A stretch of 63,970 bases of DNA, counting the filler, from Squatina squatina (Eukaryota), in the NCBI GenBank assembly GCA_031763465.1. It is 3 parts of 3 records of this genome, joined end to end, with 100 filler letters (N's around TTAATTAATTAA, not from the genome) between each part and the next. Parts side by side here need not be neighbours in the genome. Positions count along the whole stretch, not along the records: positions 51,245 to 63,970 come from JARFOE010000058.1; 2 more parts are not named here. One strand, given 5' to 3'. Position 1 is the first letter of the stretch, and the number at the start of each line of letters is the position of its first letter. Positions 56,669 through 62,065 of this stretch are shown here, one piece after another. A model generated the notes under the pieces. That model did no database searches. It saw nothing but the letters and a program-made list of their open reading frames with translations, and was not told where the DNA came from. The translations under genes were made by a program, and so were the position numbers.

Positions 56669-56740
56669 GTGCAAAAGTGCTTACAGTGCAGGTAGCAGAC
56701 TGCATCTACTGCAGTGCAAGCACTTCTTGCATTACCTTGG
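56669..56740 (+). ncRNA. MIR106A: pre-miR-106a (mature 5p 56673-56695); basal stem clipped by gap
   Basis: AAAAGTGCTTACAGTGCAGGTAG with a complementary 3' arm actgcagtgcaagcacttcttgc. Confidence 0.95.
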
Positions 56741-56846
56741 CAGATATGTTTAACTGCAACTAGCCCAGGCCTCCTAACCCCATCCTAACACTGCGCTGCT
56801 GTGTTACTTGCTTTGCGAGCCATGCATGCAGTTTGCTAACGTACCC

Positions 56847-56923
56847 CTTGTGTTAAGGTGCATCTAGTGCAGTTAGTGAAGTAGCTTAGAATCTACTGCC
56901 CTAAGTGCTCCTTCTGGCACAAG
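56847..56923 (+). ncRNA. MIR18B: pre-miR-18b (mature 5p 56854-56876)
   Basis: TAAGGTGCATCTAGTGCAGTTAG, loop tgaagtagcttagaatc and 3' arm tactgccctaagtgctccttctggc. Confidence 0.96.
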
Positions 56924-57686
56924 ATGCTACGCAGTCAGCCTGGTAATCCGACTTGGCACATCTTAAAGAATGTAAATTAAACTTTCTGTTGACAACTTAG
57001 GAGCACACTCACTGTTTAATGTGATTATTCTGCTTGTATCCTGTTCTGTAAATGACTTGGAAGTTTTGCTTTGAATTGAAGTGATTAGAGTTTAAGGACC
57101 AAGATGTGTTGCTTTGATTCTGTAGTTTATTGAATGTGAGCTGACAGTAATTCATGGCTGTGTGCAGCCTGTAAATGTTTGAGGTACTGTGGTACTGCAG
57201 TGATCTGAAGATAATCCATGAGCTGTACTTTTAAGAACTATACATGGGAATATTTTTAAAAAGTGGATCAATCTGTAGTGTAGTTTTAGCATAATTGCTA
57301 TGTCTCATGCACCATTTCTCAGCGTGAATCGCTGTGGGAATGCGTGGCTTCATGTATCCGGCCAATATTTAACCTGCGAGACAACCACGCTCCCACCAAT
57401 CTGCCACATGTTGGCAGGAAATCGGAGTTCTTGGCATGGTTAAGGTCGGAGTGTTCAGATCATGTGGGATGTGTTTACAGAACACTTGAATTCCCAAAGT
57501 AATTAGGGGGTGTCCTGTTAAAACACCCTTCAAATGTACAGAAAATGGGGGTCATGGTAAATTGAAGGGGCAACACCGACATAAGGCCAACCAAATCTTT
57601 GCCTCAGCCACATTATTAAGTCAAAGATGCCAACTTGCTTTCATTTGAAGATGTGCTTTAGTTGCAATTGCCTCAATGATACTCTT

Positions 57687-57768
57687 GCAACTCTCTGCTC
57701 GTTTTGCAGTTTTGTACTACAGGAAGAAGTGACCTGTGCAAATCTATGCAAAACTAGTAGGGAACTGT
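57687..57768 (+). ncRNA. Extra miR-19a-type pre-miRNA (mature 3p 57735-57757)
   Basis: TGTGCAAATCTATGCAAAACTAG with a pairing 5' arm ctctgctcgttttgcagttttgtac and a miR-19a-like loop ctacaggaagaa. Confidence 0.9.
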
Positions 57769-57887
57769 ACTGCTGCTTGCTGTTTACCTTGGCTGCTGCC
57801 CCTTTATCTGCTTAGCGGGCAACCTTCAGGTGCTTTCCTTTTCATTAGCATTTCTCTTTGACATCTACAGGAACGTCACCTGTCCAT

Positions 57888-57960
57888 GCAGTACCAAAGT
57901 GCTCATAGTGCAGGTAGTAGTGTATGAAATCTACTGTAATATGAGCACTTGTAGTCATGC
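57888..57960 (+). ncRNA. MIR20B: pre-miR-20b (mature 5p 57895-57917)
   Basis: CAAAGTGCTCATAGTGCAGGTAG with 3' arm actgtaatatgagcactt. Confidence 0.96.
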
Positions 57961-58012
57961 TAGACAAAAACACAGTGGTCTCAAGTGGTGGAGAGATGGA
58001 AATCTTCATTGG

Positions 58013-58103
58013 TTACTGTTTACAGTTAGTTTTGCAGGTTTGCATCCAGCTGTCAAAGTACCAGGTGCTGTGCAAATCCATGCAAAACTGACTGTTGCAG
58101 TGG
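58013..58103 (+). ncRNA. MIR19B2: pre-miR-19b-2 (mature 3p 58069-58091)
   Basis: TGTGCAAATCCATGCAAAACTGA with 5' arm agttttgcaggtttgcatccagc. Confidence 0.95.
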
Positions 58104-58178
58104 TTTCTGAAGAGCTGAAAGTTTATTTTACCCAATCAGTGATGGTACTTGTGGTGTGTTTCAACAATGTAGGCTGGT

Positions 58179-58255
58179 TTCTGCATGGGTGGGGATTTGT
58201 TGCATTGCTGGGTATTTTGTTAACAGTATTGCACTTGTCCCGGCCTGTGGAGGAA
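58179..58255 (+). ncRNA. MIR92A2: pre-miR-92a-2 (mature 3p 58227-58248)
   Basis: TATTGCACTTGTCCCGGCCTGT; the 5p arm GGGTGGGGATTTGTTGCATT is diagnostic of the 92a-2 paralog. Confidence 0.96.
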
Positions 58256-58338
58256 AAAAGGACTTGACGGCAAATGGACTGATTTTGTCAAATCTGCTAA
58301 GTGTTCCCCTCCTTTCAGGAGCCTTATCTCCCGTCGTC

Positions 58339-58421
58339 TTGCTGTTGTCGGGTGGATCACGATGCAATTTTGATTCTTTTTCTTTTGTAAAATTGCACGG
58401 TATCCATCTGTAATCCGCAAG
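58339..58421 (+). ncRNA. MIR363: pre-miR-363 (mature 3p 58391-58412)
   Basis: AATTGCACGGTATCCATCTGTA, with 5p arm CGGGTGGATCACGATGCAATTT. Confidence 0.97.
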
Positions 58422-59414
58422 ACATTTGCATGATAAAGCTAAATATTTTATGGTTTATTGTTGGCCTTTATTGTGACATTTAAAATAAAGGCTGACTAAC
58501 TTTTGGCAGTCTTATTAAAGATGGCAACTGGAGATCATTGTNNNNNNNNNNNNNNNNNNNNNNNNNNNNNNNNNNNNNNNNNNNNNNNNNNNNNNNNNNN
58601 NNNNNNNNNNNNNNNNNNNNNNNNNNNNNNNNNNNNNNNNNCTTGTTCTCCAAATTCCAAAACTTTGGAGTCTGCATACTGTAAAAGCATGAAAACCTGT
58701 CTTCATGAAATGTTAGCATTTAGTTGGCCTTTTCCTTCTCTCTTTGCTGGAAGTATGCAGCCCATCCTAATTCCACTGATGTGGCTGTGAAGGAAAAACA
58801 GCTTGAATTTAATAATTCTGTTTTCTTTGGTGTTTCTCAATCCTGCAGCTCAGACAGTGGTTTGGCACAGACAGATTGTTTTATAAACTGCTAAACTGTT
58901 CCAGAGAAGGATCATTGGACTTTGTTAATGACTGTTTTTGCTCCAGATGTCTGGGCTTGTGATGCCTCAACGTGGGTTATTACTGTACGCTGCAATCTAA
59001 CCGTGTGGCTTTAGAAATTGGACCACATCGTTTACATTCACTGCACTGTTTTCGGAAGCCTCTCCTTCCTGTTCTTTGGATGCAATTAAAGCCCCTTTCA
59101 TGAATTTTTATTAATGTTGGGCCTTTGGTGAAGGTCACTGAAGATGGGAAAGAATGTTTGGAAGTTTATCCAGTTATTTGGTGGCTGTGGGATATTTCAC
59201 TGACCACTCCTACAGAGTCCATATCCATTGACACGCCACTAATTTTAAATCATTGGTTTTGGACGTGGGGGGGCGGAGGGTAGAGAAGGGCGGAGAGGTG
59301 AAGGCTCCGTCTGCCTTTAGCAACCAAACTAGTTGGCCATGTGTGAATGTGTCAGCAGGACGTCCAACCACTGAGGGTGTCAAGCCCAACTCCATTCTTA
59401 AACCTTCAGCAGAA

Positions 59415-60235: not shown

Positions 60236-60292
60236 AATGTCCTGTTGTTGAAATGTGTAGAGATTTCCTGTACTTCCCATTTCTTTTTACAG

Positions 60293-60423
60293 ACGCGATG
60301 TTGATGGTTGCAGAGAGGTTGGAGGGACCATTCAACATTGAAACAGTCATGGACCCCATTGATGTCAAGATTTCTGATGCAATCATGAACATGCAGGAGA
60401 ACAGCATGCAGATCTCTGAAAAG
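60293..60423 (+). CDS. GPC4: Glypican-4 internal exon (131 nt)
   Basis: [44 protein letters not shown] with boundaries tttacag| and |GTACGT. GPC4 is preferred over GPC6 from the LMV/ISDA residues and PHF6/miR-106a synteny. Confidence 0.9.
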
Positions 60424-60724
60424 GTACGTTCATGATTTGGTGTCTGGGAGAATTAACCCTTTCTGCTTTTCCATTAAACCGGGGAATTTTCAGAATGTAG
60501 CGCATTTCACCCTTCTCTCAGACCCATGTAACTCCCAACAAGCTGAGCTCTGCAATAACACCAGCTTTTCCCAGGGCAATCTTTCTCTTTATTTTTTGTT
60601 AAAAGTATTTGAACATTTGAAGTTTAAAAAAAAGAATTATACCTGCATCATTCATTGTTAAATGTTGGCATCCGGGTCATTAACTGTTAAATGTTGGTAC
60701 CTGGGCCAAATTAGAACAGTCATT

Positions 60725-61195
60725 GGTCCAGATGGGGGATACATCCTAGGTTACTGTGGGAAGTAAGGGTGGAAATTGCAAAGGCTCTGGTCACAATCTT
60801 CCAATCCTCCTTAAATATGGGGGTGGTGCCAGAGGACCGGCAGATTGCAAATGTTTAATAAAGGGGAGGATAAACCCAGCAACAGCGGGGCAGTCAGCTT
60901 AATGTCGGTGGTGGGGGAACCTTTAGAAACAATAATCCAGGACAAAATTAATTGGCATTAAACAAGTGTGGGCCAATAAATGAAAGACAGCACGGCTTTG
61001 TTTGATCTAGTTCTTTGATGAAGTAATGGAGAGGGTTGGTGAGTGTAGTGCGGTTCATGCTGTGTTTATGGACTTTCAAAAAGCACTTGATAAAGTGCCA
61101 CATAATAGACTTGTTAGCAAAATTGATACCCATGGGATTAAATGGACAGCAGCAGCATGGATACAAAATTGGCTAAGGGACAGAAAGTAGAGTGT
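60725..61195 (+). mobile_element. CR1 RT N-terminal fragment, degraded
   Basis: GIHPRLL..IFQSSLNMGVVPED..MDFQKALDKVPHNRL. Confidence 0.88.
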
Positions 61196-61772
61196 NNNNN
61201 NNNNNNNNNNNNNNNNNNNNNNNNNNNNNNNNNNNNNNNNNNNNNNNNNNNNNNNNNNNNNNNNNNNNNNNNNNNNNNNNNNNNNNNNNNNNNNNAAAGT
61301 CACCCATGATTACTGTAGTACCCTTGTTCTATGATGTGTCCAATCAGTCATAATATTCCATTCCCCAGTACTGACATGCATCACTTCAACCAGCAGAAGA
61401 ATGTCTATCTCCTGAGGTCATCTGCAAAAAGTATACTTGTGATACCTGATACACTAACAAAATTCTGTGCTACCAATTAGCCGCACATCCTGCTACCCAA
61501 GATGGGAAAATTTACTAAACCTGTGGAGAGAGAGACTGACCACATCATCCATTTAGGCAGCCGGTTGAGGTGATTTGCTATGGGCATTCTTGAGCTAGAT
61601 AAAGGGTTTAGAGTTTACGTTTCGCTGGGTGGACACATATGCTGAAGCAATGAAGAACGTGGCTCGCTGTAACTGATGTGTTTGCTCCATTTTATTCAAC
61701 GGGTTTTTAGTAGACCAAGGAATCCCCAATGATCAATCTTATTGTTAATATGGGAATTTCTTTCTAATTCAG

Positions 61773-61906
61773 GTGACAGATGTAAAAGAAAAACTTAAGA
61801 AGGCAAAGAAGTTTTGGTCGAACCTCCCACACAACATGTGCAGTGGCAACAGCTCAGCAAGTGTCGTTGAACAGGACGAGTGTTGGAATGGAAGTGACAA
61901 GAGCAG
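61773..61906 (+). CDS. GPC4: Glypican-4 internal exon (134 nt; not in ORF track)
   Basis: [45 protein letters not shown] with boundaries ttcag| and |GTGAGA. Confidence 0.92.
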
Positions 61907-62065
61907 GTGAGAATTGAGGCAAATCATTGCAATTTTATACAGCAGTTTATACATTTTATTGTCCCAATACAGTGTTCAGCTAGTCCATGTGACACAAGTT
62001 AGAATAAATCAGGATGGAACTCCATCACTGAAGCTGCCTTTAAGAAGCTCAGTGACATGAAAGGC

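Follow-up and report, generated by a model that had tools for sequence, protein, structure and literature searches.

What is the hairpin that occupies the third position of the miR-106a~363 microRNA cluster of Squatina squatina, and where did it come from? The cluster lies in a stretch of DNA of 63,970 nucleotides (hereafter the window), and a sequence-only reading of that window had proposed that the hairpin is the counterpart of miR-19a, retained in this lineage and missing from the human cluster. In our analysis, this hairpin is very likely Mir-19-P1c, which carries the miR-19a seed and is sister to miR-19a through the second vertebrate genome duplication; it is predicted to be processed out of a transcript shared with the rest of the cluster. 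The sections below set out the evidence for this identification and weigh three other origins or fates for the hairpin, and also an improbable view of its product.

A seven-member miR-106a~363 cluster

Seven Rfam matches were found in the window, all of them on the + strand and all within one cluster, in the order mir-17 family, mir-17 family, mir-19, mir-17 family, mir-19, mir-92, mir-363. The seven hairpins occupy a single gap-free stretch (56669–58541) in the third part of the window, which maps to contig C58. We number them as slots 1 to 7; slot 3, our subject, is itemized in the next section. The other six, and two coding exons that lie 3′ of them, are:

56669–56738, + strand: slot 1, mir-17-family hairpin (Rfam RF00051, 64.1 bits), its 5′ flank truncated at an assembly gap
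56844–56925, + strand: slot 2, miR-18b type, Mir-17-P2c (Rfam RF00051, 59.8 bits)
57885–57963, + strand: slot 4, mir-17-family hairpin (Rfam RF00051, 72.6 bits)
58018–58099, + strand: slot 5, miR-19b-2 type, Mir-19-P2c (Rfam RF00245, 80.3 bits)
58177–58257, + strand: slot 6, mir-92 hairpin (Rfam RF00464, 83.1 bits)
58341–58419, + strand: slot 7, miR-363 (Rfam RF01898, 88.1 bits)
60286–60432, + strand: glypican coding exon 3′ of the cluster (Pfam PF01153, E 5e-16), reached across assembly gaps
61770–61907, + strand: second glypican coding exon (Pfam PF01153, E 7e-13)

The presence of miR-363 in slot 7 identifies the cluster as miR-106a~363. We take slot 1 to be of the miR-106a type by its position, slot 4 of the miR-20b type and slot 6 of the miR-92a-2 type; the order of the six hairpins other than slot 3 is that of the human miR-106a~363 cluster. 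Slot 2 has a counterpart in the second position of another cluster of this genome, on contig C80, and the two hairpins share 95% identity across 77 bases. Part of the cluster stretch recurs in 20 of 23 sequencing runs listed, and half or more of its words in none; no RNA run is among those that contain it, and these runs were left out of the evidence.

The spacer between miR-18b and the slot-3 hairpin (56926–57689) is tenfold longer than that in the C80 cluster: 765 nt separate the miR-18 hairpin from the slot-3 hairpin here, versus 76 nt there. A remnant of Mir-17-P3, which would make an eighth hairpin, was sought in the 765-nt spacer, which gave no Rfam match at E up to 1. A fold scan of this spacer in 90-nt windows gave no segment with z < −3; this is a weak scan, because it also missed three true members of the cluster (slots 1, 2 and 4).

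The glypican exons at 60286–61907, which are presumably GPC4/6-like, come from the middle of their gene; they follow a nominal 2–4 kb past the cluster across 100-N gaps, with none of the first exons between. The scaffold between the cluster and these exons probably omits much sequence.

The slot-3 hairpin and its predicted processing

An intact hairpin had been claimed between miR-18b and miR-20b, and folding, a check that the same reading had suggested, bears this out. When 57680–57775 is folded, 57686–57769 is paired (−31.9 kcal/mol; z = −4.09); none of 200 shuffled versions is equally stable. The Rfam covariance model RF00245 (mir-19) matches 57690–57765 at 52.3 bits, above its curated cut-off of 50 (E 2.8e-7), which places the hairpin in that family; mir-17-family matches (56844–56925 and 57885–57963) flank it on either side. 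In both the 3p arm and the loop, the sequence is the one given in the earlier reading. The parts of the hairpin are:

57686–57769, + strand: whole hairpin, Mir-19-P1c type, from the fold and the Rfam mir-19 match at 57690–57765
57700–57757, + strand: predicted pre-miRNA of 58 nt, with ends set by analogy with the slot-3 paralog on contig C80
57735–57757, + strand: predicted mature 3p arm, UGUGCAAAUCUAUGCAAAACUAG, with the miR-19 seed GUGCAAA
57700–57721, + strand: predicted 5p (star) arm, its 3′ end placed to within a few bases
57686–57687, + strand: basal UG, at −14/−13 from the predicted cut, also present in the slot-3 paralog on C80
57773–57776, + strand: CNNC motif, at +16 past the predicted precursor end (+17 in the C80 slot-3 paralog)

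The basal UG and the CNNC are Microprocessor motifs. Both are found here, together with a lower stem of eight pairs (57692–57699 with 57756–57763), the cut sites being placed by analogy. A canonical microRNA has about 16 or more pairs between its arms and a loop of at least 8 bases; the best fold of the slot-3 hairpin has a 9-nt loop and 16 of its 23 mature bases paired to the 5p arm, which agrees with that description, at a marginal pair count. The seed, at positions 2–8 of the 3p arm, is the same in all five mir-19 copies of the genome. Furthermore, the fold has a 2×4 internal loop, and the first base of the predicted 5p arm is a C opposite U, i.e., a mismatch at the end of the duplex. Among the five copies, this hairpin has the lowest Rfam score (52.3 versus 64.2–86.8 bits) and the weakest precursor energy (−17.5 versus −22.2 to −25.0 kcal/mol).

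Kinship with miR-19a

A genome search located five mir-19 hairpins: two in the present cluster, two on C80 and one on a short contig. A degenerate pattern of the 3p arm, run across the 1.5-Gb genome, returned five sites, which are these same five copies, and its reversed control returned none; the slot-3 hairpin is thus not a chance match. The miR-17~92 cluster had been said to hold miR-19a in exactly this slot, and the C80 cluster, which is the miR-17~92 cluster of this genome (order 17-18-19-20-19-92), does carry a miR-19a copy (Mir-19-P1a) in its own slot 3. The two slot-3 precursors, both of 58 nt, align without gaps at 45 of 58 identical bases, the other 13 being different. In a tree of the five copies they pair at 99/99 support, so that the tree proposed earlier as a check groups the hairpin with miR-19a and not with miR-19b; bearing in mind that this tree has five short rows from one genome and no outgroup, we give slot and length as much weight as the tree itself.

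Besides slot and length, the two hairpins share the seed, mature bases 1–21, the basal UG and the CNNC. The U that had been read as typical of miR-19a is at mature position 11, both here and in the C80 slot-3 copy, and the other three mir-19 copies have C; this U, the 58-nt precursor and the grouping with miR-19a all mark the hairpin as P1 (miR-19a) rather than P2 (miR-19b). Although 11 of the 35 bases that precede the 3p arm differ from those of the C80 sister, mature bases 1–21 are unchanged, a pattern that is expected of a selected mature strand. Near the loop, one change on both sides, from A-U to G-C, keeps a helix. The distinct 3′ end that had been noted for the hairpin is confined to the last two mature bases, AG in place of the GA of the genome's miR-19a, and in the fold this changed AG takes part in the lower stem. 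The 5p arm also starts differently, with C, and the fold is weaker than that of Mir-19-P1a.

Another observation concerns the neighbours. Human clusters lie close to glypican genes, and in this genome glypican exons are found near the present cluster, the C80 cluster and a further cluster on contig C115, as is expected for copies that arose by whole-genome duplication. The gap-free alignment, the shared precursor length and slot, the tree and the glypican genes nearby thus support the hairpin being the genome-duplication sister of miR-19a, rather than a local copy of miR-19b. On this evidence the proposal of an ohnolog of miR-19a stands as to its duplication origin. The word itself needs a small correction, since MirGeneDB classes the 1-alpha and 1-beta copies, products of the second (hybrid) duplication, as homeologues and not as ohnologues (PMC8728216).

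Three other loci emerged from the genome search. The fifth mir-19 hairpin, on the - strand of contig C761838 (720–800 of 866 nt), has C at 3p position 13, versus U in the other four copies; it is probably Mir-19-P2b or P2d. A lone mir-17-family hairpin on the short contig C453310 (1060–1137) probably comes from the fourth (miR-106b~25-type) cluster. The glypican-linked cluster on C115 (11111332–11114701) consists of three mir-17-family hairpins, of which the second is divergent and scores below the cut-off, at 41.8 bits. This cluster is in keeping with the 2-alpha cluster with Mir-17-P3b, reported as lost in bony fishes (PMC8728216), and on that ground the host is probably a cartilaginous fish.

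Mir-19-P1c in the catalogues

It had been anticipated that the hairpin may already be catalogued for chondrichthyans, and so it is. In the MirGeneDB 2.1 name tracker (PMC8728216, Supplementary Table S2), 'mir-19-p1c' occurs twice among 66 occurrences of 'mir-19-p1' (63 of the 66 were inspected), in the Sto and Cmi sheets only. The two entries are Sto-Mir-19-P1c (Scyliorhinus torazame) and Cmi-Mir-19-P1c (Callorhinchus milii), from catshark and elephant shark. The search of shark, chimaera, gar and coelacanth entries that had been advised therefore finds P1c in the first two of these groups, and in the tracker none of the coelacanth's four Mir-19 rows (0/4) or the gar's three (0/3) is so named. 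In the Sto and Cmi sheets, Mir-19-P1a is given two processing variants (v1 and v2) and Mir-19-P1c is given none.

Peterson et al. 2022 (PMC8789304, SuppFile2/SuppFile3) include Mir-19-P1c as gene 63 of 254 ancestral jawed-vertebrate miRNAs, with 58 alignment columns each for Mir-19-P1a and Mir-19-P1c. Their gene counts for the 1-beta cluster are seven in the jawed-vertebrate ancestor, seven in Callorhinchus, six in human, five in coelacanth and four in gar (PMC8789304). The statement that the human miR-106a~363 cluster has six miRNAs and none of the miR-19a type is consistent with that count and with the human sheet of the tracker, which is without Mir-19-P1c (PMC8728216); in both respects the human cluster differs from the present one. 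According to these two sources (PMC8728216, PMC8789304), Mir-19-P1c has been kept by cartilaginous fishes and is absent from the bony vertebrates sampled. The MirGeneDB authors employ the present cluster as their naming example, and as a worked case of loss after genome duplication, in which Mir-19-P1 was lost from cluster 2 only, so that copies a and c were inherited (PMC8728216).

The suffix c denotes the miR-106a~363 cluster, because miR-19b-2 is Hsa-Mir-19-P2c (PMC10142546) and the X-linked miR-18b is Hsa-Mir-17-P2c (bioRxiv 10.1101/2021.12.09.471935). Our hairpin has the placement of Mir-19-P1c, in slot 3 of a cluster that holds miR-18b, miR-19b-2 and miR-363. It resembles Sto- and Cmi-Mir-19-P1c in belonging to MIR-19, in being the P1 paralog on the c cluster, in being part of a cluster of seven genes, and in its 58-nt precursor versus the 58 alignment columns. 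By name, slot and length, the gene thus matches one that cartilaginous-fish catalogues already list as Mir-19-P1c, which removes its novelty.

In the papers searched, the name 'Mir-19-P1c' is absent from the main text and present in supplements only, and we found no dedicated study of shark or elephant-shark miR-19 clusters in the literature searched. What we obtained from three further sources (bioRxiv 10.1101/2021.09.01.458616, PMC7564603 and PMC11848845) added nothing on Mir-19-P1c; the additions that MirGeneDB 3.0 names are invertebrates and mammals.

Alternative explanations

The hairpin might instead have arisen recently by tandem duplication of the neighbouring miR-19b, and have gained the U at position 11 independently. 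Its 5p arm does open with GUUUUGCAG, as in miR-19b, and not with GUUUUGCAU, as in the miR-19a sister; furthermore, on bare precursors the AU test does not reject the trees that describe a local duplicate (p = 0.065 and 0.068), although the KH and SH tests do (about 0.04). Once 12-nt flanks are included, however, the AU test too rejects both of the trees that join the hairpin to the neighbouring miR-19b (p-AU 0.009 and 0.008). The precursor has only 38 of 64 bases identical to that neighbour, with a 6-nt difference in length (37/62 and 35/63 for the remaining two copies), versus its ungapped 45/58 to miR-19a, and it occupies the miR-19a slot; we regard a tandem duplicate as very improbable. Still harder to credit is an artefact in which miR-19a of the miR-17~92 cluster was misplaced here during assembly. 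The assembly is highly fragmented (1,152,659 contigs, with 100-N gaps every 1–2 kb), but no gap interrupts the cluster, and the genome contains both copies, which differ at 13 of 58 bases.

A fate other than the one we favour could also follow from the same origin: the copy may be decaying in this lineage, poorly processed or silent, and on its way to a loss of the kind seen in bony vertebrates. The low Rfam score and weak fold would be in keeping with decay, as would the larger internal loop, the terminal C-U mismatch and the long branch of the slot-3 hairpin in the tree (0.30 versus 0.04 for its C80 sister). Yet the first 21 bases of the 3p arm are intact beside the changes that precede them; the basal UG, the CNNC and the eight-pair lower stem are all in place; the best fold keeps 16 of the 23 mature bases paired to the 5p arm; and both of the cartilaginous fishes in MirGeneDB 2.1 carry an annotated Mir-19-P1c (PMC8728216). 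We therefore judge decay to be unlikely, and retain the identification of the hairpin as Mir-19-P1c with its predicted processing.

Predicted function and significance

As Mir-19-P1c, the hairpin would be carried with the whole cluster on one polycistronic transcript. Drosha, positioned by the lower stem together with the basal UG and the CNNC, may then cut at 57700 and 57757; Dicer would free the 3p arm, which in Argonaute could repress, via its seed, the usual targets of miR-19. The slot-3 gene would in this way add to the miR-19 dose wherever the cluster is expressed. Because mature bases 1–21 equal those of miR-19a, the effect predicted for this product is, most likely, added miR-19 dose on the same targets as miR-19a. 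Peterson et al. (PMC8789304) contend that dosage is the main basis on which miRNA paralogs are kept after genome duplications. There is a small chance, slightly below that which we give to decay, that the copy has been retuned: the stronger G-C helix by the loop and the C-U mismatch might move the site of Dicer cleavage or change which arm is selected, and so yield a seed-shifted or a 5p-dominant product. If that were true, the slot-3 locus would have targets outside the set of miR-19a.

Under the preferred reading, as Mir-19-P1c with the targets of miR-19a, the finding adds one more genome with the ancestral seven-gene miR-106a~363 cluster, and little that is new. The AG end provides a handle by which reads from slot 3 can be told from those of miR-19a. 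The value for the family is modest: a further data point on the rate at which the beta-side copy evolves.
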